Counted from the first letter of the stretch, positions 23,363 to 57,540 are shown. The stretch: DNA of 57,609 nt from a candidate division WWE3 bacterium CG_4_9_14_0_2_um_filter_35_11 (GCA_002789015.1 PFSJ01000018.1:1-57609), one strand, 5' to 3'. Program-made: numbers and translations. The notes: generated from the letters alone by a model not told the origin.

Positions 23363-23364
23363 TA

Positions 23365-35214: not shown

Positions 35215-35233
35215 ATCAATTCTTAAAATCTTA

Positions 35234-35272
35234 CTTTGTAATCATATGCAAGTCTTTGTAATCATATGCAAG
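35234..35272. repeat. tandem direct repeat, 2 x 19 nt (20-nt period), in a convergent intergenic gap
   Basis: CTTTGTAATCATATGCAAG occurs at 35234-35252 and again at 35254-35272. Confidence 0.9.
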
Positions 35273-35290
35273 ATTTCAGTTCCTGAAATC
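35272..35290. terminator. 8-bp stem / 3-nt loop hairpin at the convergent gene junction (candidate weak terminator)
   Basis: GATTTCAG ttc CTGAAATC, followed by TTTGT on the + strand. It overlaps the stop codon of the minus-strand GT-C gene. Confidence 0.3.
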
Positions 35291-38529: not shown

Positions 38530-38535
38530 AATTTA

Positions 38536-39237
38536 ATGTCAAAAAAATTATCAATAGTTATCCCTGTTTATAACGAGGCCGGATCCGTTTTGAAAGTTTT
38601 AGATTCATTAAAAGAGCTTCCAATAGAAATCGAAATCATTGTTGTTGATGATGGCTCAACAGATGGAACTCGCACACTTTTAGATAAATATTCAAAATCT
38701 AATAAGCAAATAAAAGTTATTTTAATGGAACAAAATGGTGGGAAGGGGACTGCTCTCCGAGAAGGATTTAATCATGTAACAGGTGATTATACCGTTGTTC
38801 AAGATGCTGATTTTGAATATGACCCGAATGATTTAATCACAATGTTTAAATTTGCTTTAGATAATAATGTCGATGTTGTATATGGAAATAGATTTTCAAG
38901 CAAAAGATTTTATACAGGCATGGATTGGAAAAACTTTTTAGGAAATAATATTGTACTACCAACAGTGGCAAGCATACTTTATGGCCAATATATTCCAGAT
39001 GAAGCAACTTGCTACAAAATGTTTAGAACTAATGTTTTGAAATCCATCCCTTTAGTTTGCAAAAGATTTGAGTTTTGTCCAGAAGTTACAGCAAAAGTTA
39101 GAAAGAAGGGTTATAGAATTTATAATATCCCGATTAAATATATGCCAAGAACCACAAATGCAGGCAAAAAGTTAAATGCTTTAAAAGATGGATTAGAAGC
39201 GATATCGACACTTTTGCGATTTAGATTTTTCGATTGA
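38536..39237 (+). CDS. GT2 polyprenol-phosphate glycosyltransferase-like (soluble DPM1/DPG-synthase-like)
   Basis: LSIVIPVYNEAGSV, VVDDGSTDGT, GGKGTALREG, QDADFEYDPND, YGNRF. Confidence 0.8.
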   Translation: MSKKLSIVIPVYNEAGSVLKVLDSLKELPIEIEIIVVDDGSTDGTRTLLDKYSKSNKQIKVILMEQNGGKGTALREGFNHVTGDYTVVQDADFEYDPNDLITMFKFALDNNVDVVYGNRFSSKRFYTGMDWKNFLGNNIVLPTVASILYGQYIPDEATCYKMFRTNVLKSIPLVCKRFEFCPEVTAKVRKKGYRIYNIPIKYMPRTTNAGKKLNALKDGLEAISTLLRFRFFD

Positions 39238-39241
39238 TAAT

Positions 39242-42848: not shown

Positions 42849-42881
42849 CGTGTATACTTCAAGAAAGTTTTTTAATCTATT

Positions 42882-44306
42882 ATGAAATTTAGCTGGTCGG
42901 TTATATCTATAATATCTAGATTTTTTGCTGTCGCAATTGGACTTATTCAATCAGTTATTATTGTTAAGCTTTTGACGGTTTCGGATTATGGGCTTGTAGG
43001 CCTTGTTACATCAATTGCGGCAATTGTTGGTGTGTATCAAAACTTAGGAATATCTTCCGGTTCTACACGGGAAATTGCTGCTGCCAAAAATAAGGACGAG
43101 GCATTTAAAGTATTTATCGGATCTACCATTGTTCGGTATTTCATTTCTTTGCCTTTAGTCTTAGGACTTTTTATTTTCGCACCATATTTAGGAAATGTTT
43201 ATTATCATAGACCTGAAATCATAAATCCTTTAAGAATTTTTAGTCTAATCCTTTTTATACAAGCTTTACAATCCGTTTTGAATTCCGTAATACAAGGTAT
43301 AAAAAAATTTAAATTTTTATTTATTTTTCAGGCTTTAATTTCTATCGTTAGCATAATTATTTACATACCCTTTTTAATTGAATATGGCTATCTCGGGTAT
43401 TTTTATGCATTGCTTGCTTTTAATATAGTTTCAACGCTTGTTCTAGGAATTTATGTTCTGAAAGTTTTTTCAGGACACTTGGTATTACCTGATGGGGCGG
43501 AGTTAAAAATGATTGTTCTTTCAGTTTTTAAAATCGGACTGTTTGTATACTTTATAAAAATATTGTTCATGCAGTGGCAAAAGTTGGGGCCAGTACTTTT
43601 AGGAAAGGATTTATCCGATGAAATGATTGGTATTTTTAGTTTCGCATTACTTGTTGCATCGAAAATAACAACAATTTCTGATGCTGTAACAGATGTCACT
43701 TTACCATCAATGACTTCTGTTTTTGAAAAGTCAAAACACGAATTCAAAAATGTATTTTTGAAAGGCAATGGTAAGGCATATTTTTTAATTTTATTTTCAT
43801 CTGTTTTTTTAATCATTTTTAAATTTGAATTATTTCAATTTGTTGATTTTATTTTTAGTTTTATTGGCAAAGATCCGATAACGACAAGATATTCTAGTGC
43901 CTTCAGGCTTATGGATCCGTTGATTTTGGCTTTTTGGGCATATTCACATATTAATTTGTTAAAATCTGGAGTTGCTGTTCCTGTAAGAAAATTGTGGGGG
44001 GCATTAATCTCATATGCGATCATGTTCTTGCTTACTATAGCGATTTATTATTCATATGGGTTTTCGGATTCACTTATGTGGTTTTCAGTTGCAATGGGGC
44101 TTGGTGGATTAGTTGCCTATATTGTATTCATTTTCTTTATTAAAAAAGAAGTTGGTTTTTATCCAATTACTAAAGGGGACATTGTTTATACCTTTTTATC
44201 TTTATTCCTTCTAGTTGGATATTATTCCAACTTGAGTCATTTGATATTAGGTTTTATCTATTTAGGCATAAGCTATGTATTATATAATAAGGTTTATTCT
44301 AAGTAA
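42882..44306 (+). CDS. Wzx/MOP-superfamily oligosaccharide flippase-like protein
   Basis: 474 aa with about 12-14 TM. The N-terminus SRFFAVAIGLIQSVIIVKLLTVSDYGLVGLVTSIAAIVGVYQNLGISSGSTREIA is typical of polysaccharide-biosynthesis (Wzx) proteins. Confidence 0.7.
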   Translation: MKFSWSVISIISRFFAVAIGLIQSVIIVKLLTVSDYGLVGLVTSIAAIVGVYQNLGISSGSTREIAAAKNKDEAFKVFIGSTIVRYFISLPLVLGLFIFAPYLGNVYYHRPEIINPLRIFSLILFIQALQSVLNSVIQGIKKFKFLFIFQALISIVSIIIYIPFLIEYGYLGYFYALLAFNIVSTLVLGIYVLKVFSGHLVLPDGAELKMIVLSVFKIGLFVYFIKILFMQWQKLGPVLLGKDLSDEMIGIFSFALLVASKITTISDAVTDVTLPSMTSVFEKSKHEFKNVFLKGNGKAYFLILFSSVFLIIFKFELFQFVDFIFSFIGKDPITTRYSSAFRLMDPLILAFWAYSHINLLKSGVAVPVRKLWGALISYAIMFLLTIAIYYSYGFSDSLMWFSVAMGLGGLVAYIVFIFFIKKEVGFYPITKGDIVYTFLSLFLLVGYYSNLSHLILGFIYLGISYVLYNKVYSK

Positions 44307-45717
44307 TAAAGAACTTTGCTTAATCTTTTTGCTAGCATTAATTTTACGGTTAATTGGTATTACTCATGGATATCCGTTCATCTATAATATCGATGAACCC
44401 GCGTTGGTAAGGAGTACCTTAGGTTTAAATTTTACGCCTTTAATAGATCATTTCGATTGGCCACATTTTAACTATTATTTTAATTATTTTTTCTATTTCA
44501 TATTTATTAAGGCTAGAGCGTTAATCCAAATTTTAAATTTGAGACCTGTAGTCGAAGGCCTTTTGCCGATTATCTGGAATGACCCATTTATTTTTTACTT
44601 GATATCAAGAATTTTGAGTGCGATTTTGGGTGCGGTAACTGTTGTCCCAATTTATTTTTTGACTTTGGAAATTTCGAAGAATAGCAAATCTGCATATTTG
44701 GCCGGACTTTTTATGTCGGTAATCCCGTTTCATTCATACTATTCACACTTTGCGCTACAAGACGGAATAATGCTTTTTTGGATTAGTTGCGGAGTTTATT
44801 TTTCGTATATTGGTGTAATAAGAAACAACTTGAAATCATATTTATTATCAGGATTATTTTTTGGTTTAGCAGTCGGGACAAAATATAACGCTATTTTATT
44901 TATGGCTATGGTTCCAGCTTTTTCAATTGAAAAATATTTATCAGATCGTAAAGACTTTTTCCAAATGTTTAAAAATGGAATTTATTTATCCATAGTTTCT
45001 GGAATTACTTTTGTTTTGACAACGTATAGTTTGATCTTTAAGTGGTCAATTTTTTGGTCTGAAGAATTTGGGAAAGGAATGTTGTGGCAACTTAAATATA
45101 ATGTTATTGCGTTGCCATTTTCAGAGTATCCACAAGCAATTATAGAAAATATAAAAGAATTGAGTCAGGATTTTAGCATTTTTGGTTTAGCAATTATAGC
45201 TTTAGGAGTTATTAATATTTTAAGGAGTAAAAAAAGTATTGGTGTGACATCGATGATTTTAGCTTCCACTATATATTTTCTATATGTGTCGAGATTTAAT
45301 AGGAGTCCATCTCATTATTTTTTACCTATATATTTATTTTTGCCGATTTTTGCTAGTTATGCATTTTTATTTAATTCAAAGAAGATGAATTTTCTACTTT
45401 ATTTGTTGCTTTTTTCTATGTTTATTACAACTTTCTGGTCGACGATAAAATTTATCAGGTTAAATACGAAAACAGAAGCTATAAATAAATACGCCGAAAC
45501 ATACAAAAATAAAATTTACTATAATGGCGAAGGGCTCGATTCCGCAAATGGAATAAATAATATAGGCATGAAGAAATATAATGATGATATTGTCTTGACA
45601 TCAGACAATATATTAATTTCAGAAATAGAAATTAAAAGTGATAAAATCAAACAAGTTGAATATATAGATTCAAAAAACAGATATGGAAATTCAATATATG
45701 TATACACAGGTAATTAA
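44275..45717 (+). CDS. GT-C-fold membrane glycosyltransferase (PMT_2/ArnT-like); paralog of 33643..35214
   Basis: NIDEPALVRSTLGL, HFDWPHFNYYFNYFFY, SRILSAILGAVTVVPIYFLTLE, GLAVGTKYNAILF. Confidence 0.72.
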   Translation: MYYIIRFILSNKELCLIFLLALILRLIGITHGYPFIYNIDEPALVRSTLGLNFTPLIDHFDWPHFNYYFNYFFYFIFIKARALIQILNLRPVVEGLLPIIWNDPFIFYLISRILSAILGAVTVVPIYFLTLEISKNSKSAYLAGLFMSVIPFHSYYSHFALQDGIMLFWISCGVYFSYIGVIRNNLKSYLLSGLFFGLAVGTKYNAILFMAMVPAFSIEKYLSDRKDFFQMFKNGIYLSIVSGITFVLTTYSLIFKWSIFWSEEFGKGMLWQLKYNVIALPFSEYPQAIIENIKELSQDFSIFGLAIIALGVINILRSKKSIGVTSMILASTIYFLYVSRFNRSPSHYFLPIYLFLPIFASYAFLFNSKKMNFLLYLLLFSMFITTFWSTIKFIRLNTKTEAINKYAETYKNKIYYNGEGLDSANGINNIGMKKYNDDIVLTSDNILISEIEIKSDKIKQVEYIDSKNRYGNSIYVYTGN

Positions 45718-47251
45718 CAAAATTAAAAATTTACCAACGACTCTTTATATATTTTTGTTTGCTTTTTTGTATCGCTTGCCATCTTTGGGCGTGGATTTTA
45801 TAAATAACGATGCATTTTTATGGAAAAGTAGAAGCTACGAATTCGGAAAAGCTTTGATGTCATTAGATTTTGCGAAAACTGCTGTTACGTATCATCCCGG
45901 AATTCCTCTTTTGTGGAGCCAATTTATAGCAATAAAAATTTATTCGCTTTTAGATTTTCTCATATATAAAGGGGTGCTATCTCCGAACGCTGAATTTATT
46001 ACAAACCACATTATTCAAAAAACAGTTTTAGTTTTTTTTACTTCTGTATTAGTTGCTTTAGCATTCTTCTTACTCAAAAAAATAATTGGTCAAAGATCTT
46101 CGATTCTAGTAATTATGTTTGTTCTTTTGGAGCCTTTTTATTTAGGTCTTTCAAGAGCAATCCATACAGATACCATGATTTCACTTTTCATGTTTATCTC
46201 GTGTTTATACTTTTATATCGCATTTTCTAAAGACAACATAATTGAAAGAAATGGTAAAGAGGCGATTTTATCTGGTGTTTTTATAGGTTTGGCAGCTTTA
46301 ACAAAAAGCTCTGCATTATTTTTAATTCCATTTTATGTTTTGGGATACCTAATTTTAAGAAGGTTTGATTTTTCTGAAATAAAAAAATTATTAATTGTTT
46401 ATCTATTTTTTATATTAAGTTTTTTTGCTTTTTGGCCTGCCATGTGGGTAAATCCAGTCGGGTCCTTAAATCTTTACCTATTTAAGGGAGTTGAAGGGGT
46501 GGCCCTCGAAGAGGGCCACGGACATATATGGTTTGGTGTAGAAACACTTGATCCGGGTCCACTTTTTTATCCGATAGCGTTTGTTTCTCGGTATTCAATG
46601 TTTATGGTTTTGATGTTTGTATTCGGGATTTATTTTTCAATTAAAAATTTTAAAAGAAAGTACAAGTTCAACATTAACCTTATTTATTGGTTTGCCTTTA
46701 TTGCATTCTATTTTTTGATGTTGACTTTTGTTTCAAAGAAGTTGGATAGATATCTTCTTCCTATAACTTTTCCAGTTGCTATTTTTTCTGTATATTGGAT
46801 TAGAAATTACTTTTCTAAAAAAGTTTTGGCCCTAATTTTTTCACTTTTTGTTTTTGGTAGATTTGTAATTTTATTTGGCCTACATCCGAACTATTTGGCT
46901 TATTACAGTCAACTAGTTGGTGGAATGGAAAATGGAAGAACTTTGATTGAACCTAAATGGTTGATTGCATATGATAAAGTCGCACTATTTTTTAATAGTG
47001 ACGATGAACCAGAAAAAGTAAAAGTTGCGATCGCCGATTTTGATTATTTAAGACCATTTGCGAAATTTGAGGTTTTGAATATAAGAGTAGAAGAGGAGCG
47101 CAATAAAGCTGATTATTTTGTTTTGCCAGTGTATAGGGAAGAGCGAAATAAATTTTATCTTGATAGCTATAATTTGGAAAAATTAAATGATGTGATAACT
47201 GTTTCAGGCGTAGAGTATTATCAAATTTATAAAAGCCGAGGCAAAAAATAG
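45683..47251 (+). CDS. GT-C-fold membrane glycosyltransferase (PMT_2-like); paralog of 35276..36982
   Basis: 522 aa. NNDAFLW...TYHPGIPLLW, SRAIHTDTMISLF, GLAALTKSSALFLIP. Confidence 0.7.
   Translation: MEIQYMYTQVINKIKNLPTTLYIFLFAFLYRLPSLGVDFINNDAFLWKSRSYEFGKALMSLDFAKTAVTYHPGIPLLWSQFIAIKIYSLLDFLIYKGVLSPNAEFITNHIIQKTVLVFFTSVLVALAFFLLKKIIGQRSSILVIMFVLLEPFYLGLSRAIHTDTMISLFMFISCLYFYIAFSKDNIIERNGKEAILSGVFIGLAALTKSSALFLIPFYVLGYLILRRFDFSEIKKLLIVYLFFILSFFAFWPAMWVNPVGSLNLYLFKGVEGVALEEGHGHIWFGVETLDPGPLFYPIAFVSRYSMFMVLMFVFGIYFSIKNFKRKYKFNINLIYWFAFIAFYFLMLTFVSKKLDRYLLPITFPVAIFSVYWIRNYFSKKVLALIFSLFVFGRFVILFGLHPNYLAYYSQLVGGMENGRTLIEPKWLIAYDKVALFFNSDDEPEKVKVAIADFDYLRPFAKFEVLNIRVEEERNKADYFVLPVYREERNKFYLDSYNLEKLNDVITVSGVEYYQIYKSRGKK
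46499..46519. other. perfect 9-bp GC-rich stem / GAA loop inside a GT-C gene
   Basis: GTGGCCCTC gaa GAGGGCCAC, encoding VALEEGH. Confidence 0.85.
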
Positions 47252-48819
47252 TGAAAAAGGATATTTTGATAATTCTTGCGATTTTTCTGTTTTCTTTTGG
47301 TTTTAGATTGTGGAACATAACGAAACACTTTGAAGTTTGGGACGAAACCGCGGTTGTTAGGGTCGGGGAAATCTATATTAATTCAATTAAATCTCTTGAT
47401 TTTAGTGAAAATACATGGAAATTAAATAAGGAACATCCGCCTTTTTCGAAATATTTTTATGGAGCATCAAGAATCGTTACTTTGAATTCTGATTATTTAA
47501 GCAATAATATTGATCAGGATTTTCCACTCGGAAGAAGATATTCATTACAAAGAATCTTAAGCGCTTTTGTTGGCTCTATTACAATTGTTCTTTTATATAT
47601 ATTGGCAAGTAAGTTCTACAATTCGAAAATTGCATTGATATCAAGCCTTATATTATCTTTGACGCCCCATTATTTTGCACATAGCAGAGTTGCAACCCAA
47701 GAGAATTTTGTTTCCTTTATGACTTTAGTCACAGTTTGCTTTTTCTTTTTTGCATTACGTACACGAAAACTTAAACATCGGTTTTACATTATCTCTGGAG
47801 TTTTGTTAGGACTTTCAATTGCAACAAAATATAACTCACTTTTCTTTTTAGTATTGTTTTTACTTCTCACTCTGTCTGAGTTTGGTCGTCGTTTTTTAAA
47901 ATCAAGATTCTTGATTTTAAAAAACGACCTAATTTTAATTCCATTTTTAGCTTTAGGAACTTTCTACGCTGTTTGGCCGTGGCTTTGGCCAGATCCAGTT
48001 GGAAGATTTTTATCAAGCGTAAGTCGTATAAATGGTTCAAGATATTTCGAATACTTTTTAGGACAATTTCCATCTCCGCACTCTTGGTATTATTTTTTTG
48101 TTTATTTATTTGCTACAACGCCCCCAATTATTTTGCTTGGAGTTTTCCTTTTTGGGATTAAATTCATATTCAAAAGGGGAAAATACGATTTTTGGTTTCT
48201 GATGTATTTTTTAACGCCATTAATGGCTACGTTTTCACCTCTTAAAATGGATGGCATAAGATATATATTTCCAATATATCCTGCAATGGCAATTATTTCT
48301 GGAGTAGGATTTTATTTTCTAATCGATATTTCCGGAAAATTTATAGATTCGACATATAAATCAATTGTTGAATTTGCAACTCCAGTTATTGTATTCGGAA
48401 TACTTTTTATGACGATACTAATATATCATCCATTTTATTTCGATTACTATAATATATTTTTTGGAGGCCCATCAGGAGTTTATAAAAACCGATTATTTGA
48501 TTTTGGTTATTGGGGAGAAGGATTAAGAGACGGCATGAATTTTATATATAAGGAGGACCCAGATATTAGAAAGAAAGTATATCTTAAGATTTTACCAGTG
48601 CACGTATTGCCACCTTATAAAAATAACACTGTATACGTTGATGAAATTGAGAAAGCTGACTACGTGATAATAAATCCTGCTGGAGAGTGGTTAAATCAGA
48701 CAAATTATCTTGATTATGATTTTCCATACAATTTTGATATCGTATTTGAGGAAGCATTGATGGATGCTCCGATTGTTCAAGTTTATAAAAGGAAGTTTCC
48801 GTATATCGGGAAATTATGA
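47251..48819 (+). CDS. GT-C-fold membrane glycosyltransferase (PMT_2/ArnT-like)
   Basis: GTG start overlapping the upstream TAG (TAGTG). WDETAVVRVGEIY ... NKEHPPFSKYFYG, SRVATQENF, GLSIATKYNSLFF. Confidence 0.72.
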   Translation: MKKDILIILAIFLFSFGFRLWNITKHFEVWDETAVVRVGEIYINSIKSLDFSENTWKLNKEHPPFSKYFYGASRIVTLNSDYLSNNIDQDFPLGRRYSLQRILSAFVGSITIVLLYILASKFYNSKIALISSLILSLTPHYFAHSRVATQENFVSFMTLVTVCFFFFALRTRKLKHRFYIISGVLLGLSIATKYNSLFFLVLFLLLTLSEFGRRFLKSRFLILKNDLILIPFLALGTFYAVWPWLWPDPVGRFLSSVSRINGSRYFEYFLGQFPSPHSWYYFFVYLFATTPPIILLGVFLFGIKFIFKRGKYDFWFLMYFLTPLMATFSPLKMDGIRYIFPIYPAMAIISGVGFYFLIDISGKFIDSTYKSIVEFATPVIVFGILFMTILIYHPFYFDYYNIFFGGPSGVYKNRLFDFGYWGEGLRDGMNFIYKEDPDIRKKVYLKILPVHVLPPYKNNTVYVDEIEKADYVIINPAGEWLNQTNYLDYDFPYNFDIVFEEALMDAPIVQVYKRKFPYIGKL

Positions 48820-49943
48820 ATAAAAAAAGATTGTTGATGTGTTATCACTCATCAGAATATGGTGGAGTAGAAAAACAAATACTAGATATTATAAAAGGGC
48901 TTTCTGAAAAGATTGAAATTATTGTGGTTTGTCCAGAAGGTCCAATGGTAAAGGAATATTTAAGTGGCGGGGCGATAAAGCATATTGCTTTATCGCCCCG
49001 CCATGAAGCGGATTTGCAGTATGCACTGCAAATCCGCCAACTCATAATTCTAGAAAAAATAGATATCGTACATTCTCATGAACTTTTAACTGGATCTCTT
49101 GCAACTTTTGGTGGGTGGCTTGCTTCATTTAGAAAACCTGTAAAAAGAATTTATCATGTTCATACACCTTTTTCTTGGTGGAGACACAATTTTCTCAAAA
49201 GTTTACCAGCACTTTTCATAAATACATTTGTTAATTTTATTGTCGGTAATATTTTTGCAACGGATGTTTTAGCACTTACTCCATCTATTAAAAGACATAG
49301 AATATTTAATGAATTTATCTCTCCAACAAAAATCAGAGTACTTCCAAATGGAATTGAGAATGAGTACTTCAGTTTTTCGCAATTACAAAGAAATTCCTTT
49401 AGAAAAAAATGGCGCATTCCAGTTGACACATTTGTTATAGGAAATATTTCTCGTTTTACAAAGGAAAAAGGTCATGAAGTTTTAATTAACGCTTTTTCAC
49501 AAATTAAGAAACAAAATCCAGGTAAGAATATGCTTTTGCTTCTTGCTGGTGGAGGAATTCTTTTAAACGAGATAAAGTCTTTATCTAAAAACCTTGGTAT
49601 TTATGAAAGTGTAATTTTTACAGATCAATTTTTAGAATCGGATAAGATTGGAATATTATCTTCAATTGATTTATTTGTATTTCCATCCTATGCCGAAGGC
49701 TTTGGAATTGCTATTCTTGAATCAATGTCTATGGGAATTCCTACAGTAGCTTCTAACCTACCTGTATTAAAAGATGTTGGTGGCGATGCTGTAATTTATG
49801 CGAAAACAGGAGATCCCAGCGATTTTGCGGCTAAAATGAGGGCTATCCCTGATGTTTCATCAGGGGTAGCCCTCCTAAAAAGGGCCGAAGTCTTTTCGAT
49901 GCGAAATTTCATCAAGAATTATTCAGGCCTTTATAACCTATGA
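48816..49943 (+). CDS. GT4-family glycosyltransferase
   Basis: EYGGVEKQILDI, IDIVHSHE, ISRFTKEKGHEVLI, PSYAEGFGIAILESMSMGIPTVASN. Confidence 0.85.
   Translation: MNKKRLLMCYHSSEYGGVEKQILDIIKGLSEKIEIIVVCPEGPMVKEYLSGGAIKHIALSPRHEADLQYALQIRQLIILEKIDIVHSHELLTGSLATFGGWLASFRKPVKRIYHVHTPFSWWRHNFLKSLPALFINTFVNFIVGNIFATDVLALTPSIKRHRIFNEFISPTKIRVLPNGIENEYFSFSQLQRNSFRKKWRIPVDTFVIGNISRFTKEKGHEVLINAFSQIKKQNPGKNMLLLLAGGGILLNEIKSLSKNLGIYESVIFTDQFLESDKIGILSSIDLFVFPSYAEGFGIAILESMSMGIPTVASNLPVLKDVGGDAVIYAKTGDPSDFAAKMRAIPDVSSGVALLKRAEVFSMRNFIKNYSGLYNL
48965..49037. other. twin GC-rich perfect hairpins inside the GT4 gene
   Basis: Hairpin 1 (48965-49003): GGCGGGGCGATAAAGC(a) tat (t)GCTTTATCGCCCCGCC, a 16-17 bp perfect stem plus an outer T-A pair. 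Hairpin 2 (49008-49037): GCGGATTTGCAGT atgc ACTGCAAATCCGC, a 13-bp perfect stem. Confidence 0.9.
49838..49874. other. 17-bp stem (one G-T) / TTT loop hairpin carrying the GGGCTAYCCC core, inside the same GT4 gene
   Basis: GAGGGCTATCCCTGATG ttt CATCAGGGGTAGCCCTC. It is followed by CTAAAAAGGGC, which resembles the spacer-plus-repeat start of the sufS element. Confidence 0.85.
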
Positions 49944-51124
49944 AAATATTATTTCAATCGCGAGTAGATCTTTATAATCCAAGAGGTGGCGATACATTTC
50001 AAATTGAAAAAACAAAATCCGCAATTGAAAAACTTGATCCAAATATAAAAATTGATATTTCATTAAATGTTCATGAAAAGAATATTTCTGATTATGATAT
50101 TGTTCATCTTTTTAATATAGATTGGGTTTGTGAAACTTATATGCAAGCAAAATTTGCAAAGGATCATCATAAGCCGCTTGTTATTTCAGCTATACATCAT
50201 TCATACAAAGAAGTTTTAGATTTCGAAAATTTTGCAAGATATGACATAAGACGAATTTATAATCTTATTGTGAAAAGCCAGCCATTAAGAGATGTTGGCA
50301 AAAATGTGTATCGTAGTTTTTTCAATAGAAAAAAGCTGTACCCGACAATTTTGCAAGTTTTAATGGGTATAAGAAATCAGCAGAGGAAAATTCTTCGCAT
50401 GTCAGATATCGTTTTAGTTCAAACTAAGCAGGAATCTAAAGATTTGATTACTGATTTTGGCGTATCTGATTTTAAATCGGAATTAGTCGTAAACGGCGTA
50501 GATGCTGATATTTTTAATAATGCTTCAAGATCTCCGTTTCAAAAGTTTTTTATGGAAAAATATTCAGTTGATATTTCTAAAAAGAAGGTTTTGTTGAATG
50601 TTGGAAGAGTTGAACCACGAAAAAACCAATTAAATTTAATTAAAGCTTTTGAAATGTTAAAGGAATCGCAAAGTTTTGATGGCTATATTTTAATTTTTGT
50701 AGGAGTTCTCTCAGAACGAAGTCCAGAATATATTTATAGGTTTAATAGTGAAATTAAAAATCATGAAGACATTTTTTATGTTGGAGCTTTACCTCAACAG
50801 ATGTTAGCTTCCGCAATGTCACAAGATGGAATTTATGTTCATCCAAGTTGGTTTGAAACAACAGGCCTTGTTTCTTTAGAGGCTACTTTAGCAGGTATGA
50901 CTCCAGTTGTTTCTGGCGATCGTGTTAAAGAGTATTTGGGTGATTATGGCTATTATTGCGATCCAAAAAGCCCCGAAAGTATAAAGAATGCTATACTAAA
51001 AGCGAGTGAAAGCTCGAAAAATACTGATGTATTAAGAAAGCGTATTCTTCGTGAATTTACTTGGGATAATGCGGCTTTACAAACTATTTTTGTTTATAAA
51101 AGCTTGTTATCTAAATCAAAATAA
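49940..51124 (+). CDS. GT4-family glycosyltransferase
   Basis: NVGRVEPRKNQLNLI, PSWFETTGLVSLEATLAGMTPVVSG. 394 aa. Confidence 0.8.
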   Translation: MKILFQSRVDLYNPRGGDTFQIEKTKSAIEKLDPNIKIDISLNVHEKNISDYDIVHLFNIDWVCETYMQAKFAKDHHKPLVISAIHHSYKEVLDFENFARYDIRRIYNLIVKSQPLRDVGKNVYRSFFNRKKLYPTILQVLMGIRNQQRKILRMSDIVLVQTKQESKDLITDFGVSDFKSELVVNGVDADIFNNASRSPFQKFFMEKYSVDISKKKVLLNVGRVEPRKNQLNLIKAFEMLKESQSFDGYILIFVGVLSERSPEYIYRFNSEIKNHEDIFYVGALPQQMLASAMSQDGIYVHPSWFETTGLVSLEATLAGMTPVVSGDRVKEYLGDYGYYCDPKSPESIKNAILKASESSKNTDVLRKRILREFTWDNAALQTIFVYKSLLSKSK

Positions 51125-54100
51125 ATGGATTACATAATGCTCCTCCCAGCTTTAGCAATTTTCATACTGTCTTTTATTTTAGGAATCAAAAATTTAAGAA
51201 TTTCTTTTCTACTTTTAATAATTTTGACGCCTTTAGTTCATAAAGAGTTATTTAGCCTTGGTGGAATTTGGGATTTGCTCCCTATTAGAGTTGCCTTCGG
51301 TGGTATCGCTTTATCTTCTGTTTATCATTTTTTTGTTTGGGCAAAAAAAGCAGGTTACAAAAGATTTTTACATTCGAGTTTAGAGGCTTTGAAAAAAGAT
51401 CCATTTTTAGTTTTGCTTTTATCTTTGTGGCTGCTTCGACTTTTATGGATCAAAAAATCAGCTTCTTTTGACGAAAGTTTTAAACTGTACATTTTTTATT
51501 CTTCAATTGTTGGCATTTATTTTATTTTTAGAAATTTATATGAAAAGCATGGGTTGAAATTTATAAGAAAGTCTATTGATCTTTATTTAGCCATGGGCTT
51601 TTTTGCGGCCTTAATTGCTGTTTTGCAATTTTATTTAAGGATTTGTTGCAGGTTTAGCGTTGGAGGAGTTTGGGTTGTCCCAGGTTATACTCCTCGTCTC
51701 GGCTCGACTTTTTGGGATGTAAATCATTTTGGCGGTTATTTAGTAACGATGATTCCTATTTTATTTGCAATGTTTTTCATGAAGCACAAAAATAGGTTTG
51801 CTAAATTTTATTACCTTTTTTCAGCATTTTTCCTGTCTGGAATTTTATTTTTCACTCAATCTAGAAGTTCGTGGATGGGACTTGCGGTTGGACTTGGTTT
51901 ATCCTTATTCATATATTATTTTTCAAGTTTAAAAAAGATTTTATATTCGTTTGCGATACTTGTATTAGTCGGAATTGTAGGACTTTTATCGTACACAACA
52001 TACAAACATATTTCCATAAATGAAAAGGTTGCTTCTTTTATGCACTACAGACTTGATTCTACTGACACACATATGCTTCTTTTAGACGGCGCAAGTGAAG
52101 TTTATTTTGATAACTTTTTGATTGGTGCTGGGTATGGAAATTTTGATCACGCATTTAGAGGTACGCCAATATCGGATATCTATTTTAATAGGGAGCCAAA
52201 ACTTAAAGAGATGAAAGTTCCACCTCATAGTGTGTGGGGCGAAGTTTTAGCAGAAACAGGATCAGTAGGTATGACTTTATATGCACTTTTTGCAGGTCTT
52301 ATTTTGGCAAGCCTTGTTGTTTCAATCTTTACGTCTAAATCAAATGATGTGAAATATTTAGGCACTGGTCTTCTTGGTGGCGCCGTTTCCATATTTGTTG
52401 CTGGACTATTTTATTCTTACAATATGGAATTTTATTGGATTTATCTTTTTATATGTATCGGGTTTTCTATTATGACAATTGGTAAGAATCGGAATTTACC
52501 TTATGTTCTAAATTGGTGGTCTAAAAATCCGATTACACCATATTTGATAATCTTGCCTATTTCAGCTTTTTATATTTTCATAAGACTTGGTTCTACGACC
52601 TTAATTGATTGGGACGAAGCCATTTATGCAAAAGTTGCAAAAAATATTGTTTTATCTAACGATTGGTTGACTTTGCATTGGACGGACATGAAAGACTATT
52701 GGTTTGAAAAGCCACCATTTTATATGTGGCTTACGGCTTTAGCATTTAAGATTACAGGATTTAATTCATTCGGTGCAAGAATAGTTTCTGCCACTTTCGG
52801 GATTTTTGGAATAATGGCAACATATAAATTAGGAAGTAAACTTTACAACAAACTAACAGGTATTACTGCATCGTTGATTTTGTTATCAACCGCTCATTAT
52901 TTGTACTATTCACGAAATGGAATGTTAGATGTCACAGCAACATTTTTTATTGTGTTGTCGATATTCTATTTTTATAGAGGGCTGTCGTTGAGCGATAAGC
53001 GAAACGCAGCCCTCATAAGCTGGCTCCTTTCGGGAGCCAGCATCGGCTTCGCCGTTATGACAAAGGGAATCATTGGTTTTATACCACTGCCAATTATTTT
53101 TATTTATTTGTTGGTTTTAGATATAAAAAATCTCAAAAAATATTTGAAACCATTTTTATTCATTGTAATTGGTATTTTATTAATAGCAGGGCCATGGCAT
53201 ATTTACTCATTGATTAAATACGGGAATGATTTCTGGGATACATATTTTATTGATCACATGATTGGTCGTGGACTTTCTGGTTTTGGTCACGAGAAACCGG
53301 TTTTGTGGTTTTTAGATGTAATAAGGACTTCATTTAGAATTTGGATTCTGCCACTTTTTGGTGCTTTGGTTTTGCTTCCATTTTTTGATAAGGATAGAAG
53401 GCAGTATTATCTTCTTCTGATTTCTACTTTTTTTGTTTTAATTTTCTTTTCGGTATCAAAAGATAAATTGCAGTGGTATATAATGCCGATTTATCCGTTC
53501 ATTGCTATTTTGTCTGCACGTTTTATAGAAAGATCTATATATATTCTTAATTCATTTTTAAGAAGTGAAATAAGGTTTGATAATAAATACTCAAGAATTT
53601 TATTAGTATTTTGTGCTTCTTTAGTTGCCATTTTCTATGTAGTAATTATCCGAGATAAAGTTTATTTGTCCGATTTCAATAAGGACAAGGTCGCATTGGT
53701 AGAGATAAATAATAAGAATTATCCAATTGAAGACTATCCAGATCGAAAATTATATTTCAGTAGAATTGAACCTCCTGTGTTGCGTTTTTATAGCGATCAT
53801 GTTGTTAAGTCAGTTGATGAGCCAACTATTTTAAGAATGATAGACGATGCCGGGCCTTTAGAAAACTATAGCTTTTTGGTTCCAGATTCGGTCTATTATA
53901 AATTGCAAAGTAAGGGAGGCAGGATTAAGGCTCCACTAGTTTTAGACATTAAAGGTACGTCTGGAGGTTGGGTATTATTAAAATCTGTTTCTAGGGTAGA
54001 GCTATTGAGATCTCAACTTGAAACGCTCATGTCAAGACATAAGACATTTATTGATAGGTTGATATTGGGCGAAAAATTAACACTACTCGAAAAGATGGCG

Positions 54101-54199
54101 TTTGATGAAATTAATATAGAAATCGCTGATGTATCAACTAAGCTTACGAATTATGGGTATCCACCAGACCCTATAGAAGATCCTTTTTATGTTAAATAA
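51125..54199 (+). CDS. fusion protein: O-antigen-ligase/Wzy_C-like N-terminal half + ArnT/PMT_2-like GT-C C-terminal half + soluble C-terminal domain
   Basis: N half: FTQSRSSWMGLAVGLG and PPHSVWGEVLAETGSVG (Wzy_C-like). From about aa 465: LIDWDEAIYAKVAKNI...WFEKPPFYMWLTALAF...GARIVSATFGIFGIMATYKLG...GFAVMTKGIIGFIPLP (ArnT/PMT_2-like). 1024 aa. Confidence 0.7.
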   Translation: MDYIMLLPALAIFILSFILGIKNLRISFLLLIILTPLVHKELFSLGGIWDLLPIRVAFGGIALSSVYHFFVWAKKAGYKRFLHSSLEALKKDPFLVLLLSLWLLRLLWIKKSASFDESFKLYIFYSSIVGIYFIFRNLYEKHGLKFIRKSIDLYLAMGFFAALIAVLQFYLRICCRFSVGGVWVVPGYTPRLGSTFWDVNHFGGYLVTMIPILFAMFFMKHKNRFAKFYYLFSAFFLSGILFFTQSRSSWMGLAVGLGLSLFIYYFSSLKKILYSFAILVLVGIVGLLSYTTYKHISINEKVASFMHYRLDSTDTHMLLLDGASEVYFDNFLIGAGYGNFDHAFRGTPISDIYFNREPKLKEMKVPPHSVWGEVLAETGSVGMTLYALFAGLILASLVVSIFTSKSNDVKYLGTGLLGGAVSIFVAGLFYSYNMEFYWIYLFICIGFSIMTIGKNRNLPYVLNWWSKNPITPYLIILPISAFYIFIRLGSTTLIDWDEAIYAKVAKNIVLSNDWLTLHWTDMKDYWFEKPPFYMWLTALAFKITGFNSFGARIVSATFGIFGIMATYKLGSKLYNKLTGITASLILLSTAHYLYYSRNGMLDVTATFFIVLSIFYFYRGLSLSDKRNAALISWLLSGASIGFAVMTKGIIGFIPLPIIFIYLLVLDIKNLKKYLKPFLFIVIGILLIAGPWHIYSLIKYGNDFWDTYFIDHMIGRGLSGFGHEKPVLWFLDVIRTSFRIWILPLFGALVLLPFFDKDRRQYYLLLISTFFVLIFFSVSKDKLQWYIMPIYPFIAILSARFIERSIYILNSFLRSEIRFDNKYSRILLVFCASLVAIFYVVIIRDKVYLSDFNKDKVALVEINNKNYPIEDYPDRKLYFSRIEPPVLRFYSDHVVKSVDEPTILRMIDDAGPLENYSFLVPDSVYYKLQSKGGRIKAPLVLDIKGTSGGWVLLKSVSRVELLRSQLETLMSRHKTFIDRLILGEKLTLLEKMAFDEINIEIADVSTKLTNYGYPPDPIEDPFYVK
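52977..53041. other. twin GC-rich hairpins inside the ArnT-like half of the fusion gene
   Basis: Hairpin A (52977-53014): outer GAGGGCTG/CAGCCCTC, inner CGTT/AACG and GC/GC. Hairpin B (53019-53041): GCTGGCTCC tttcg GGAGCCAGC, a 9-bp perfect stem. By hand count 39 of 65 nt are G/C. Confidence 0.85.
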
Positions 54200-56300
54200 A
54201 ATTTCTAAATATTTAATTTATCTGTTAGTAATCTCAATTCCATTTACGCATAAGGAAATGTTTTCGATTTTTGATCCTGATCTTGTTATTTCAAAGTTTT
54301 TTTTAATTTTAGTTTCTGTTTTGGGAATATTTTATTTCTCAAAAAATTATAGTTTATATTTAAAAGATAAATTGTTTGTGTTTCTCTCCTTGATTGTCCT
54401 TTTTCAACTGTTAAGCCTTCTTCAAAGTCGCGACATTATGAATTCGATTAGAATGATATTTTTTCAAGGAGCGATTTTATTTTCATATCCAACATTTAAA
54501 GAATATATAATTTCAGAAAAAGGGAGTATCTCGAGGTTGGTCAATGTTTATAAATACACATTTTTATTTGTTTTTGCGTTTTTACTTTATCAAATGTATT
54601 TGCAGGAAACAAAAGGCATTGCAACAGGTGGAGTTTGGCCAGTCCCTGGATATCCAACAAGGTATGGTTCTGTATTTTGGGATGTAAATCATTTTGCGGC
54701 TTATCTTTCATCTTTATTTTTTATTGTTTTGGCAAGTTTGTTGGCTACAAAAAAGCGGGCGGGAAAATACTTTGATTTTGTGCTAATTATCCTAATTGGT
54801 ATTTCGCTATATTTTACAAGCTCAAGAAGTGCAACGATCGGATTTGCATTTGGACTTTTATCGTTCATGTATATTTATATTGGAATTTATAAAAAGATTA
54901 GATTTAAATTTGGAACATTTACTTGGGCCGGAATTGCTATAACTTTTGTTACATTACCTTTGTCTATTTTATATCTATTTCAGGATATAATTAGGCAATC
55001 ATTTTTATATAGATCTGTATCATTTTTTTCTCATCTTTTTTTAATGAAAGTTGGAATTAATGTTGGACTTGAAAACTTTTTGTTTGGAATAGGAACGAAT
55101 TCATTTCACGCTTATTTTCATACATCAAAGTGGGCAAATGCTTATTACTATATAGATAAAGCGGCATTAAGTTATAAGTTGCCACTTCACAATTTATGGC
55201 TTGAGGTCTTTGCCGAAACTGGTGTTTTTGCATTAATTTGCTTTATTTTGTTTTGGGTTTTGTTACTTTACATGCTTTCTAGATCAGTTTCGGCAAAGAC
55301 CCTAAATCTTACTTCAGTCGGTTTTTTTGCAGGTATAATTTCATTTTTAGTAGGTGGGGTTATGTATTCATATAAATCTGAATTCTTTTGGATTTACGTC
55401 GTGATTGCGTGTGCTTATGTAACGTATCACTTCAAAAATATTGATTTAAAACTGCCGACATTTAATCTACCGACACTTTATTCTTTTGCTACTTATGTTT
55501 TTATAGGGGTCTCTTTTTTGTTGCCACTTTTTTATCTTATGTCTCCTATAACTTATGATGAGATGTTAATAATTTATTCAGAAAAAAGTCTGTATTTTTT
55601 AGATTTGTTTAGATATATTTTAGGAAATTTTTCGTTTACGGATAGATCTTTTTCTTTGATTTTTTATATCGGTAGCATTTTACTTTTGTTCGGAATCTTT
55701 AGAAAGACGTGCAAGGGAAAAAGAGCACTTGTTTCAACGGCTATTGCTTTTAATTTGATTAATATTTTTGTTCCTGGTGTTTATGTTTCAACGAAATGGA
55801 TTGTTTGTTTTTTTGTTTTAGTTCTTATGTCGTTTGGAATGAAGTTTTTGAAGCTTACGGGTCATTTTGTTTGTCATTTGAAGTGGGCAAATAAATCAGT
55901 TTATGCGTTTGTTTTGATTTTGTCTTTTTTGCTAGCGATGTTTTCTGCAAATTCATATAGCAAGAAGTATTCGTATGATAGTGATTTGTCTTTTTTGCTT
56001 GAGCTTGCATCGAATCGATTGCTTTTTGAGAAGTCTTCTATTTGGGTTGATTCAAGCGTTGATTTGCCTTTGGCTCATTATTATTGCGATTCTATGAGTA
56101 AGAAGGATGGTGTTTTTAGCCTGAATTCATGTGATATTAATGTTTTGAACAAGAACGCTATTTCTGTCGCAAATGCTCCAAAGCTAATTATTATTGGCAA
56201 GTCTGATTTTATTGATAAGATTTCTATTCTCGGCGATGAGTTTCATCATGGCGAGAATTATTTAAAAAGCGGCGAGTATATGATGTCGGTTTTGGATTAG
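54189..56300 (+). CDS. O-antigen-ligase/Wzy_C-like polytopic membrane protein with extra C-terminal TM and soluble region; paralog of the N-half of 51125..54199
   Basis: GGVWPVPGYPTRYGSVFWDVNHF (compare GGVWVVPGYTPRLGSTFWDVNHF), FTSSRSATIGFAFG, PLHNLWLEVFAETGVFA. Confidence 0.65.
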   Translation: MLNKISKYLIYLLVISIPFTHKEMFSIFDPDLVISKFFLILVSVLGIFYFSKNYSLYLKDKLFVFLSLIVLFQLLSLLQSRDIMNSIRMIFFQGAILFSYPTFKEYIISEKGSISRLVNVYKYTFLFVFAFLLYQMYLQETKGIATGGVWPVPGYPTRYGSVFWDVNHFAAYLSSLFFIVLASLLATKKRAGKYFDFVLIILIGISLYFTSSRSATIGFAFGLLSFMYIYIGIYKKIRFKFGTFTWAGIAITFVTLPLSILYLFQDIIRQSFLYRSVSFFSHLFLMKVGINVGLENFLFGIGTNSFHAYFHTSKWANAYYYIDKAALSYKLPLHNLWLEVFAETGVFALICFILFWVLLLYMLSRSVSAKTLNLTSVGFFAGIISFLVGGVMYSYKSEFFWIYVVIACAYVTYHFKNIDLKLPTFNLPTLYSFATYVFIGVSFLLPLFYLMSPITYDEMLIIYSEKSLYFLDLFRYILGNFSFTDRSFSLIFYIGSILLLFGIFRKTCKGKRALVSTAIAFNLINIFVPGVYVSTKWIVCFFVLVLMSFGMKFLKLTGHFVCHLKWANKSVYAFVLILSFLLAMFSANSYSKKYSYDSDLSFLLELASNRLLFEKSSIWVDSSVDLPLAHYYCDSMSKKDGVFSLNSCDINVLNKNAISVANAPKLIIIGKSDFIDKISILGDEFHHGENYLKSGEYMMSVLD
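55205..55301. repeat. 17-bp perfect inverted repeat flanking a 63-nt segment inside the ligase-like gene
   Basis: GGTCTTTGCCGAAACTG (55205-55221) is the exact reverse complement of CAGTTTCGGCAAAGACC (55285-55301). Confidence 0.9.
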
Positions 56301-56320
56301 TTTAATATCGGATATTAAAC
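56300..56320. terminator. 21-nt perfect palindrome spanning stop codon to stop codon of convergent genes (candidate bidirectional terminator)
   Basis: GTTTAATATC g GATATTAAAC. It begins in the TAG of the + gene and ends in the CTA (TAG on the minus strand) of the - gene. The stem is AT-rich and there is no clear U-tract. Confidence 0.4.
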
Positions 56321-57540
56321 TACTTGCAATTTATTTCAAATACAGTAACAGTGTCAAATTTATCGGCAGAGAAGTTTTTGTTTGGTCTGCTCGCGATTAT
56401 TTCATCATTTGTATATTCCTTTATTAATTTTAGTTTAGGATCATATAATAAAAAGTTTTTCATATTTTTAGTAATTTGTTCTTTTTCGAGGTCCTGGTCT
56501 GTTTTAGGAACGTGATTTCCAAATACAGGGGAACCCCAACTTTCTGCCATAGCGACTTTTAGTTGAGGTGTAACGACTCCAGTTTTCATGAATTTTTGAA
56601 CATACTTTTGTCTGTTTAGTTCTTTTTCGTGGTAGAAGAGGTATTTGACATCAAGTTTGTTAGAAAGATCACAAAATAACTTTTCTCGTTCCACCAAATC
56701 TATTGGTATCAAGGCATTTTCACGCTTTAATATTATATCTTCTAAAAGTTTTGCGTCTCCTCTTGTTACGAGGTATGGATTTATGATTTCTATGTTTGCG
56801 TCGTATGTGTAAAGGTGGTCGGTATAATCTGCGCGTGATGGAATTTCAATATACTTAAGTGGAGATTGTTGCAAAGATGCTTGTTCCCGAAGCCATTCGT
56901 ATGGTGGAGTTGGCTCAATTGATATTAAATGTTTTCCAGGTATAAATTCAAAAATTGCGAGTGCGGAGATTGTGATTATCAGCAAATTCTGTTTAAGTTT
57001 TTGATGCGATTTGTTAATGAATGATTTAGAAATTAAATGTTCAAGTCCAATAACTGCCAAGATTGTGTTTCCTATGAATACAAAAATTCCATATCTTGCA
57101 TATGCTCTAAATTGTGGCAAAAAGTCATAAATAAAATGAGAGGGGAAGTATATCTTGAAATTATTCAAGCCAATATATGGCGGCATGCTAAAAATAAAAG
57201 CAGTTACTGCAATAATCAAAAAGAAAGTGACATTAAATTTTTGGTCTCCTGTAATAGTTTTTTTAACATATGTTTGCCAAATTGTATAAATTGATAGAGC
57301 TATAAGTGTATAGCCCAAAAACAAAGTATGTTCTTTTGGGAAAAACGGTTCGGTTAAATAATACGGAGGATGTTGCCAAATCCAGAAGTTTACACGAACG
57401 GCTAAATCACCAAAAACAGGGTGATCAATATCAGGAATCAAATAATTCCATGGCCTTGCCGAAAAAGCAAAGCGGTCGGAAGGGGATCGGGTGATCTCGG
57501 TTATTGGGATAAGTTGATTATTTATTTTATTCATATTCAA
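56320..57540 (-). CDS. hypothetical polytopic membrane protein with C-terminal soluble domain (possibly glycan-related)
   Basis: 406 aa with about 5 TM in the first half. No motif I can name. It ends the island in convergent orientation. Confidence 0.35.
   Translation of the reverse strand: MNMNKINNQLIPITEITRSPSDRFAFSARPWNYLIPDIDHPVFGDLAVRVNFWIWQHPPYYLTEPFFPKEHTLFLGYTLIALSIYTIWQTYVKKTITGDQKFNVTFFLIIAVTAFIFSMPPYIGLNNFKIYFPSHFIYDFLPQFRAYARYGIFVFIGNTILAVIGLEHLISKSFINKSHQKLKQNLLIITISALAIFEFIPGKHLISIEPTPPYEWLREQASLQQSPLKYIEIPSRADYTDHLYTYDANIEIINPYLVTRGDAKLLEDIILKRENALIPIDLVEREKLFCDLSNKLDVKYLFYHEKELNRQKYVQKFMKTGVVTPQLKVAMAESWGSPVFGNHVPKTDQDLEKEQITKNMKNFLLYDPKLKLIKEYTNDEIIASRPNKNFSADKFDTVTVFEINCK

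Follow-up and report, generated by a model that had tools for sequence, protein, structure and literature searches.

A single gene of WWE3 bacteria joins a WaaL/Wzy_C-type module to an ArnT-type glycosyltransferase, with predicted coupling of two outward-facing steps in surface-glycan assembly

Introduction

The WaaL/Wzy and ArnT/PMT classes are the two main kinds of outward-facing glycosyltransferases (GTs) in bacteria that use lipid-linked sugars. They are normally separate proteins, and their cooperation on one glycan has been inferred mostly from genetics. In canonical systems, the Wzx and Wzy steps, ligation by WaaL, and three-component decoration by GT-C enzymes are carried out by separate proteins (PMC11127046). 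Here we describe a gene at positions 51125..54199 of a 57,609-nucleotide (nt) stretch of DNA (the window) from the candidate division WWE3 bacterium CG_4_9_14_0_2_um_filter_35_11 (GCA_002789015.1, PFSJ01000018.1:1-57609), in which modules of both classes are joined in one polypeptide of 1024 amino acids (aa).

Bimodular ligases have a precedent in WadA of Brucella and Mesorhizobium, an O-antigen ligase combining GT121 and GT25 modules, in which GT25 adds the last core sugar and which its authors read as acting in a coupled manner, ligation of the glycan following the addition of that sugar (PMC10920833). In both WadA and the WWE3 protein, one polypeptide combines an O-antigen-ligase-type membrane module with a glycosyltransferase that transfers single sugars in the same pathway. 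The partner in WadA is a globular GT25, whereas the partner here is a polytopic GT-C_A module with an outward site, which should use a polyprenyl-phosphate sugar; WadA also acts on the lipopolysaccharide (LPS) core in diderms, whereas the present host is a monoderm bacterium of the candidate phyla radiation (CPR). GT25 enzymes are cytoplasmic and depend on nucleotide sugars, and a Pfam scan of the fusion found no GT25 domain, the fused partner being of the PMT_2/ArnT type. The resemblance to WadA is one of logic and not of membership, and the fusion, with its different type of partner, is no new category of system.

Each half can also be set beside stand-alone enzymes. WaaL works on a lipid A-core acceptor, whereas the WaaL-like module here is joined to a second enzyme in a host expected to lack lipid A-core, and the module resembling ArnT (CAZy GT83) stands behind a ligase-like module in a host that would have no lipid A. 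Ligase-family enzymes do occur in Gram-positives (PMC10920833). TacL of Streptococcus pneumoniae, a stand-alone Wzy_C protein of 397 aa, is proposed to ligate the polyprenyl-pyrophosphate-linked teichoic acid chain to a membrane glycolipid (PMC5727136). Its likeness to the fusion is the shared Pfam family, and as it belongs to a monoderm, ligase-type Wzy_C enzymes work without LPS. PglL, PglS, PilO and TfpW resemble the predicted fusion in performing en bloc or lipid-phosphate-sugar-dependent glycosylation on the outer face of the membrane; unlike PglL, PglS and PilO, the fusion has no detected PglL_A or Wzy_C_2 domain, and its gene context indicates no protein acceptor. In systems of the GtrA/GtrB/GtrC type, a GT2 enzyme makes a polyprenyl-phosphate sugar, a flippase exports it, and a GT-C enzyme adds it to a lipid-linked glycan outside (PMC11127046). 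The window has GT2 genes of this kind, one of them fused to a GtrA-like domain, and many GT-C modules, but the GT-C of three-component systems is separate from the Wzy polymerase or WaaL, whereas that of the fusion is covalently joined to a Wzy_C-type enzyme.

Full-text searches of the literature turned up no account of a GT-C_B/GT-C_A fusion or of a WWE3 glycan locus, and the CAZy classification paper does not mention a fusion with GT39 or GT83. The fusion proteins are already deposited, with the automatic annotation "glycosyltransferase family 39 protein", so the architecture is visible in databases.

Results

One Uninterrupted Gene Encodes Both Modules

The reading frame at 51125..54199 (+) begins with ATG and runs through 1024 codons without an internal stop, which agrees with a preliminary description of the window that had claimed a single open reading frame (ORF) of this length. 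It is a single gene joining two membrane glycosyltransferases that are usually made as separate proteins. The ATG lies directly after the TAA stop of the upstream GT4 gene (51122-51124), the next gene, starting at 54189, overlaps the 3' end by 11 nt, and nt 52440-52560 are ordinary coding sequence in which a stop or frame change is absent. The gene and its parts are as follows.

51125..54199, + strand: whole fusion gene, 1024 aa, WaaL/Wzy_C-type module, linker and ArnT-type module (ORF, Pfam, homologs, AlphaFold2)
51125..52489, + strand: N-module, residues 1-455, 12 transmembrane helices, predicted GT-C_B/O-antigen-ligase-like fold (Pfam, Foldseek, hhalign, topology)
52490..52534, + strand: linker predicted to be cytoplasmic, residues 456-470, in which 458-467 form a short amphipathic helix, joining transmembrane helices 12 and 13 (AlphaFold2 secondary structure)
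52535..53647, + strand: ArnT-type (GT-C_A) transmembrane module, residues 471-841 (profile against 5EZM, Pfam PMT_2/PMT, conservation)
53648..54196, + strand: predicted extracytoplasmic C-terminal domain, residues 842-1024 (Foldseek, conservation, comparison with homolog P0069)

The preliminary description had let a second module begin at about nt 52500, where the linker indeed lies, and the ligase-like, ArnT-type and TKG motifs that it named were each found where it had put them: FTQSRSSWMG at residues 243-252, PPHSVWGEVLAETG at 366-379, IDWDEAIYAKVAKNI at 494-508, WFEKPPFYMW at 526-535 and TKG at 646-648. Its assignment of the halves to the Wzy_C and ArnT/PMT_2 families was likewise upheld by domain-resolved hidden Markov model matches, judged against the curated Pfam gathering cut-offs, with Wzy_C in the N-half and PMT_2 and PMT in the C-half, all above cut-off and well past what chance would give.

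The N-Module Resembles WaaL

Pfam Wzy_C (PF04932) matched residues 233-386 (nt 51821-52282) with 62 bits against a cut-off of 31.7 (E 7e-17). It was the only family detected when the N-half was scanned against Pfam at E <= 0.01, PglL_A and Wzy_C_2 not being found. In Foldseek comparisons, the N-halves of two structure models (described below) matched WaaL (7TPG) with template modelling (TM) scores, TM(target), of 0.60 and 0.62 and E values of 2e-5 and 5e-6, which indicates a WaaL-like fold; RodA and FtsW were weaker matches. The 12-helix topology, which is shared with WaaL, includes a 76-residue outer loop at 294-369. Invariant residues predicted to face outward are R191, W197, D198, N200, H201, T244, S246, R247, R309, D311, S312, H316, H368, W371, Y430 and E435. 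The N-terminal HKELFS and FWDVNHF motifs are conserved and appear to be family-specific.

Ligases of the GT-C1 clan use two Arg to bind undecaprenyl pyrophosphate (Und-PP) and a His to activate the acceptor, whereas inverting polymerases of this clan have Asp or Glu in the place of that His (PMC10920833), and the Wzy_C family has been described as having an Arg triad and a catalytic His (PMC12800693). Specifically, R191, R265 and H313 of CmWaaL correspond to R215, R288 and H338 of EcWaaL, the pyrophosphate Arg pair and the acceptor-activating His (residue roles from PMC10920833, PMC12800693). A weak hhalign alignment with E. coli K-12 WaaL (E 0.003, probability 10%) put TQSR247 on TQTR215 and H368 on H338, so that an invariant Arg and an invariant His of the fusion line up with the essential R215 and H338. 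Given an invariant H368 at the position of the WaaL His, the N-module is tilted towards ligase-type chemistry.

The C-Half Is an ArnT-Type Module with Its Own Extracytoplasmic Domain

The C-half passed the Pfam cut-offs for PMT_2 (PF13231; residues 529-691, 74 bits against 26.1, E 2e-20) and PMT (residues 479-699, 61 bits against 22.7). When a profile of the family was searched against PDB, the sole sequence match was Cupriavidus metallidurans ArnT, 5EZM (E 1.7e-46). Loop 1 of the module carries D497-E498, Y501-A502 and F527-E528-K529-P530, and further key residues are D602, K647, R715 and Y785. The acidic DE motif of the PMT type in this loop was kept nearly throughout (D497 in 73/73 and E498 in 72/73 genomes). 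In the profile alignment, CmArnT D55, E84, K85, D158, R270 and Y345, which we take to be the catalytic and undecaprenyl-phosphate-binding set, fell on the invariant D497, E528, K529, D602, R715 and Y785. For ArnT of Burkholderia and Salmonella, experiments have established the loop-1 motifs RYA and YFEKP together with an essential Tyr, Lys and Arg (PMC5377068). Their counterparts in the fusion are I-Y501-A, with Ile in place of the Arg of RYA, W-F-E-K529-P and R715, the YA and FEKP parts being invariant.

The NCBIfam ArnT equivalog NF009784 matched residues 476-808 over profile positions 10-339 of 539 with 123 bits, far under its cut-off of 567. Structurally, the top Foldseek match was again C. 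metallidurans ArnT (5F15/5EZM), with a TM(target) of 0.64-0.69 over about 560 alignment columns. As the target has about 540 residues, the match includes the soluble periplasmic domain of ArnT. Taken together, sequence profile and models point to the C-half being a complete ArnT-type GT-C enzyme, with counterparts of the loop-1 signatures, save the Arg of RYA, and of the residues that bind undecaprenyl phosphate, though it lies below the ArnT equivalog cut-off.

The preliminary description had seen a soluble tail of about 170 aa after the second module. A tail is there (183 aa, 842-1024), but it is not a separate extra: residues ~842-955 are, as modelled, the alpha/beta extracytoplasmic domain of ArnT itself, and residues 957-1009 (nt 53993..54151) form a helical hairpin of two predicted helices that is confined to the window's subclade and missing from P0069. 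The C-terminal domain is the least conserved part of the protein, with a median identity of 21% and a length of 52-190 aa.

A Short Linker and Confident Models Place the Modules Side by Side

AlphaFold2 was run on two alignments of 56 family members, headed in one case by the window protein and in the other by P0069, which is 32% identical to it. The two models reached a predicted local distance difference test (pLDDT) score of 90.0 and 90.2 and a predicted TM score (pTM) of 0.87 and 0.89, respectively. A pTM that high in a two-module protein of about 1000 residues implies, as a proxy, a defined placement of the modules relative to each other. The linker is 13-15 residues long in 66/73 genomes, and so short a connection between helices 12 and 13 would force the two helix bundles side by side.

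Topology was derived by combining the model helices with hydropathy. The N-module accounted for 12 transmembrane helices and the C-module for 11, with the N-terminus and linker inside and the C-terminal domain outside, and the share of Lys plus Arg was 26% in the inside loops and 11% in the outside segments. The invariant polar residues all lay on the outer face or at the outer ends of helices.

The Fusion Is Conserved across WWE3

Among 5.8 billion protein clusters, a homolog search identified 86 relatives of full length (917-1073 aa, and in addition one partial of 660 aa) with identity down to 31%, and PF04932 and PF13231 occurred together in every one of the 86. Homologs with names were called "glycosyltransferase family 39 protein" and came from WWE3 or Patescibacteria; the best match, at 88% identity, was from a WWE3 metagenome-assembled genome. 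A genome scan with two peptide patterns from the N-half alone, taking one genome per species, found 99 relatives, of which 78 loci were kept. A single ORF of 846-1057 aa was present in 77 loci, nearly all of them WWE3/Patescibacteria, and the complete genome CP006914 (RAAC2_WWE3_1) carries the fusion. The only broken copies were four genes at contig ends and two loci, L081 and L083, with frame changes inside the N-module. The latter were considered as natural splits and rejected, since the changes fall within the module (query residues 210-239 and 358-363) and are errors or pseudogenes. One contig labelled "Candidatus Woesearchaeota archaeon" (JAWABG010000068.1) carries a fusion 40% identical to the window protein together with a tandem paralog, as in the window's bacterial subclade, and is probably mis-binned.

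When the N-half alone served as query in an exhaustive HMMER search of 1.84 billion representatives, only 60 proteins were found at E <= 1e-30, mostly of 850-1070 aa, the short matches (~430-570 aa) being mostly partial proteins at contig ends. On these searches, the family is small, closed and essentially always fused. In an alignment of 73 species-representative fusions, the 22 candidate residues of the N-half and the 20 of the C-half were mostly kept in 72-73/73 sequences, a few in 67-71. Because they are kept at median identities to the window protein of 31% for the N-half and 38% for the C-half transmembrane part, both sites are under purifying selection, and because the halves diverge in step (r = 0.95), the fusion has been inherited as a unit. 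The fusion is thus conserved across the WWE3 class of Patescibacteria, whose members are ultra-small and uncultured.

Two-Gene Forms Split at the Module Boundary

Both fused and split versions were found. One two-gene form was represented by L085 and L086, with identical sequence on six contigs, one of them of 285 kb. The gene order was GT4, a 460-aa Wzy_C gene, a 55-nt spacer, a 497-aa PMT_2 gene, GT4, another Wzy_C gene, of 428 aa, and Wzx. The 460-aa protein is 34% identical to fusion residues 23-443 and its gene ends in TAG. The 497-aa protein lies in another frame, is 36% identical to residues 472-908 and has all motifs intact. The spacer (7384..7438 of L085) contains a perfect 7-bp stem (GGTCGTC, loop TAGG, GACGACC) and an A-run just before the second ATG, and the stem may be a regulatory or processing element.

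A second form, L087, known from a single contig, had the order GT2, GT4, GT4, a 431-aa Wzy_C gene, an in-frame TGA followed by 9 nt, and a 483-aa PMT_2 gene with its own ATG. The TGA (4651..4653) was considered as a recoded codon, but TGA also terminates neighbouring genes at sensible positions, and it was judged an ordinary stop. This locus may be a very recent fission or have a stop that permits read-through.

These natural splits fall exactly at the module boundary, with the modules in the same order as in the fusion. About a dozen more stand-alone orthologs of the C-half were found, one of them upstream of a GT4, Bac_transf, DUF4012, RecO block as in WWE3. In a neighbour-joining tree of the N-modules, the split forms grouped together next to the window's subclade; the tree has no support values and therefore cannot tell fusion from secondary fission. 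A pair that keeps its order, whether encoded by neighbouring genes, as in some lineages, or by a single gene, as in WWE3, is a classic signature of proteins that work together, and the two-gene form thus supports a predicted functional coupling.

The Fusion Lies in a Wzx-Dependent Glycan Locus

Neighbourhoods were compared across 74 related loci. One cluster of GT4 genes occupied position -1 in 64/66 loci and recurred with another 62 copies at -2; at -3, 49 loci had a GT4-like gene, and a stand-alone PMT_2-like GT-C gene stood usually at -4 (48 loci). A divergent Polysacc_synt (Wzx) flippase followed at +1 in 53/72 loci, and further downstream were GT4 (51 loci), the initiating phosphoglycosyltransferase Bac_transf (48), DUF4012 (45) and RecO (41). 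DUF4012 has no solved relative and was of no help in deciding between polymerase and ligase. As judged from gene content, the setting is a Wzx-dependent, Gram-positive-style surface-glycan locus beside housekeeping genes and not a variable island. In the window, the following genes surround the fusion.

22181..23362, + strand: GT2 fused to a GtrA/DPMS-type transmembrane domain (Pfam Glycos_transf_2 and GtrA_DPMS_TM; NCBIfam below cut-offs)
23347..24126: third GT2 (Pfam only)
from 24123: UDP-glucose dehydrogenase, followed by an epimerase/dehydratase from 25399
38536..39237, + strand: small GT2, 233 aa, candidate maker of the lipid-phosphate-sugar donor (Pfam Glycos_transf_2; NCBIfam below cut-offs)
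41301..42848, + strand: 515-aa protein with no Pfam or NCBIfam match
42882..44306, + strand: Wzx-type flippase (Polysacc_synt_3/Polysacc_synt; Pfam)
44275..45717, 45683..47251 and 47251..48819, + strand: three stand-alone PMT_2 GT-C genes (Pfam)
48816..49943 and 49940..51124, + strand: two GT4 (GT-B) cytoplasmic glycosyltransferase genes (Pfam)
54189..56300, + strand: tandem N-module paralog, 703 aa (Pfam Wzy_C at 199-353; hhalign to the family profile, E 1.8e-40)
56320..57540, - strand: 406-aa protein with no Pfam or NCBIfam match

The gene after the fusion had been described as a stand-alone paralog of the N-half, and its Wzy_C domain and profile match bear this out. It keeps most candidate catalytic residues, with D311 replaced by V and G372 by L, and ends in a C-terminal extension of about 270 aa that is rich in transmembrane segments and has no detectable homology. 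A tandem paralog was found at +1 in only 7 loci, all in the nearest subclade. An hhalign match running to profile position 568, with "YDE" facing "WDE", suggested that the whole fusion had been duplicated and that the 703-aa gene was its decayed copy. The idea was rejected, as the C-terminal 274 residues alone gave E 0.26 and aligned to the wrong region.

The window's locus is enlarged to about 35 kb, starting at 22181 and running to the end of the stretch, and holds the GT2-GtrA gene and two further GT2 genes, UDP-glucose dehydrogenase, the epimerase/dehydratase, five GT4, seven stand-alone PMT_2, DUF2079 and Wzx. For the small GT2 (38536..39237), the best NCBIfam matches were AglJ, ArnC, Dol-P-hexose transferase, PgfS and PpgS, and for the GT2-GtrA fusion they were of the PgfS, AglJ and ArnC type, all below cut-offs. 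Both split loci, L085 and L087, also contain small GT2 genes of this sort, which match polyprenyl-phosphate glycosyltransferases best, at family level only. Such GT2 genes are candidates for making the donor of the ArnT-type module, and the GT2-GtrA protein, a putative lipid-phosphate-sugar synthase, may add the flippase component of a three-component glycosylation system.

A 17-kb part of the window (31895..48819) is dense in GT-C genes, with PMT_2 genes at 31895, 33643, 35276 (-), 36922, 44275, 45683 and 47251 and a DUF2079 membrane protein at 39242. The seven stand-alone PMT_2 proteins are 21-35% identical to one another and at most 29% identical to the fused C-half, in partial alignments, and they were rejected as recent copies of it. 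This unusual density suggests that much glycan is assembled outside the membrane from lipid-phosphate sugars. The cluster of the 406-aa protein at 56320..57540 occurs in 24 related loci (525 aa in CP006914), making it a conserved, uncharacterised component of the glycan locus. A gene for a CAP/SCP-domain protein (cysteine-rich secretory protein family; 21043..21882) lies between cell-division genes (FtsE/FtsX-like, M23 peptidase) and the point at which the glycan cluster begins.

Discussion

As judged from sequence and models, one polypeptide carries two complete, outward-facing glycosyltransferase modules that depend on lipid-linked sugars, and the fusion probably couples two outward-facing steps of surface-glycan assembly. 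Cytoplasmic glycosyltransferases would build an oligosaccharide on Und-PP, and Wzx would flip the product outward. The N-module would then hold the pyrophosphate through invariant arginines, R247 plus R309 or R191, and pass the glycan en bloc, by inverting chemistry of the ligase type, to an acceptor hydroxyl activated by the invariant H368. The ArnT-type module would bind a polyprenyl-phosphate monosaccharide through K529, R715 and Y785 and move the single sugar, using D497, E498 and D602, onto the same acceptor or product. Prime, then ligate is the order we favour: the ArnT-type module would set an acceptor sugar to which the ligase-type module attaches the oligosaccharide, following the logic of WadA. 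We consider the chances about even that the two modules act in this way, with en bloc transfer of the flipped Und-PP-oligosaccharide and ArnT-type transfer of a single sugar on the same acceptor. CPR bacteria are without a Gram-negative envelope, and DUF4012 has been associated with capsular polysaccharide/exopolysaccharide (CPS/EPS) clusters (PMC6744442). Since the host is a monoderm and should lack lipid A, a membrane glycolipid, wall glycan or surface protein would serve as acceptor. Lipid A is an unlikely acceptor, and the fusion is therefore probably no WaaL ortholog in function. We infer coupled transfer on one acceptor, which is strengthened by the split form, the length-constrained linker and the high pTM of both models.

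Several observations weigh against ligase-type coupled transfer. The mapping of R247 and H368 onto WaaL comes from the alignment with an hhalign probability of 10% and E 0.003, in which R288 falls on H316 and R309 lies seven residues off, and a sequence search of the N-half against PDB matched nothing relevant. The essential C-terminal Glu of Burkholderia cenocepacia ArnT, E493 (PMC5377068), had no equivalent identified in the poorly conserved tail. The evidence for module placement is pTM, a proxy only. A GT2 cluster lies within 10 kb in only 14/74 loci, so that a polyprenyl-phosphate-sugar synthase is no universal neighbour. Finally, the fusion is the sole Wzy_C-type protein in most WWE3 loci, the usual seat of a Wzy polymerase, and as the only such enzyme in a Wzx cluster it is tilted towards a polymerase.

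This last point belongs to the main rival reading, somewhat less likely in our view, in which the N-module is a Wzy-type polymerase joining flipped Und-PP repeat units, the ArnT-type module is the GT-C enzyme of a three-component system adding a side-branch sugar, taken from a polyprenyl-phosphate donor, to the lengthening Und-PP polymer, and another enzyme attaches the product to the wall. In the main WWE3 clade, the fusion is indeed the only Wzy_C-type protein beside Bac_transf, GT4s and Wzx, the link of DUF4012 to CPS/EPS clusters fits, the paralog gave a weak TuaE-like match, and GT-C enzymes are well known to decorate Und-PP-linked polymers in the periplasm (PMC11127046). The residue that falls on the catalytic His of ligases is, however, the invariant H368, where inverting polymerases of the clan have Asp or Glu; the deep conservation of the family is unlike typical Wzy polymerases, which go down to 16% identity between serotypes; and the loci yielded no Wzz/polysaccharide co-polymerase (PCP). 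None of these arguments settles the matter. Protein O-glycosylation is improbable: it would make the N-module a PglL/PilO-like O-oligosaccharyltransferase and the C-module a PMT-like enzyme, both acting on Ser/Thr of secreted proteins, for example pilins or S-layer proteins, as these leave the membrane. Both Pfam families include members that glycosylate proteins (the C-half passing PMT as well as PMT_2), type IV pili are relied upon by CPR bacteria, whose envelopes are Gram-positive-like, the loci include PgfS-like GT2 genes, and GT-C enzymes such as TfpW glycosylate pilins. Yet Pfam detected neither PglL_A nor Wzy_C_2, nor, in the fusion protein, a MIR domain, which eukaryotic PMTs have in their large lumenal loop, no pilin or S-layer gene was conserved in the neighbourhood of the related loci, and the C-half resembles ArnT (E 1e-46, TM ~0.68) far more than it does the Pmt1/2/4 structures, whose fold matches were poorer and partial (TM(target) 0.25-0.6).

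Degenerate GT-C modules occur in other multi-domain enzymes, and the C-terminal soluble domain of the fusion is poorly conserved, as would be the case if only one half were catalytic and the other had become a scaffold or substrate-binding module for stability or localisation. We regard this as very unlikely, since the residues mapped as catalytic or donor-binding in either half are all present in 72-73/73 genomes despite identities of ~31-38%, and the genes of the split forms keep all motifs. The occurrence of two-gene versions elsewhere could also mean that two adjacent genes were wrongly joined in the window through a stop or frameshift missed in assembly or annotation. Such an artefact has next to no probability, given a single ORF in 77 independent assemblies including the complete genome CP006914, relatives 88-91% identical to the window protein that are likewise full length, a conserved linker length, and a junction that AlphaFold2 modelled confidently.

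A bolder form of the coupled-transfer reading, which we think doubtful, would have the fusion act as an obligate two-site hand-over machine for the signature envelope glycoconjugate of an entire CPR class. The ArnT-type site would glycosylate a membrane lipid or surface protein as an anchor, and the ligase-type site, in the same rigid complex, would attach the Wzx-flipped oligosaccharide to the freshly added sugar. If this were true, it would amount to a lipoglycan or glycoprotein pathway that does without LPS, an LCP ligase or a separate polymerase, and the protein would be the first natural GT-C_B/GT-C_A tandem and a structural template for cooperation between a ligase/polymerase-type enzyme and a lipid-phosphate-sugar transferase.

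The practical value of the finding is moderate, with the architecture visible in databases, a precedent in WadA and a function that is predicted. The apparently intact active sites, the short linker of fixed length, the confident models and the matching two-gene form nevertheless make the fusion well suited to structural and reconstitution studies of how en bloc and single-sugar transfer are coupled. For the organisms themselves, it points to an apparent core pathway for envelope glycans in WWE3; the surfaces of these bacteria probably mediate attachment to hosts.

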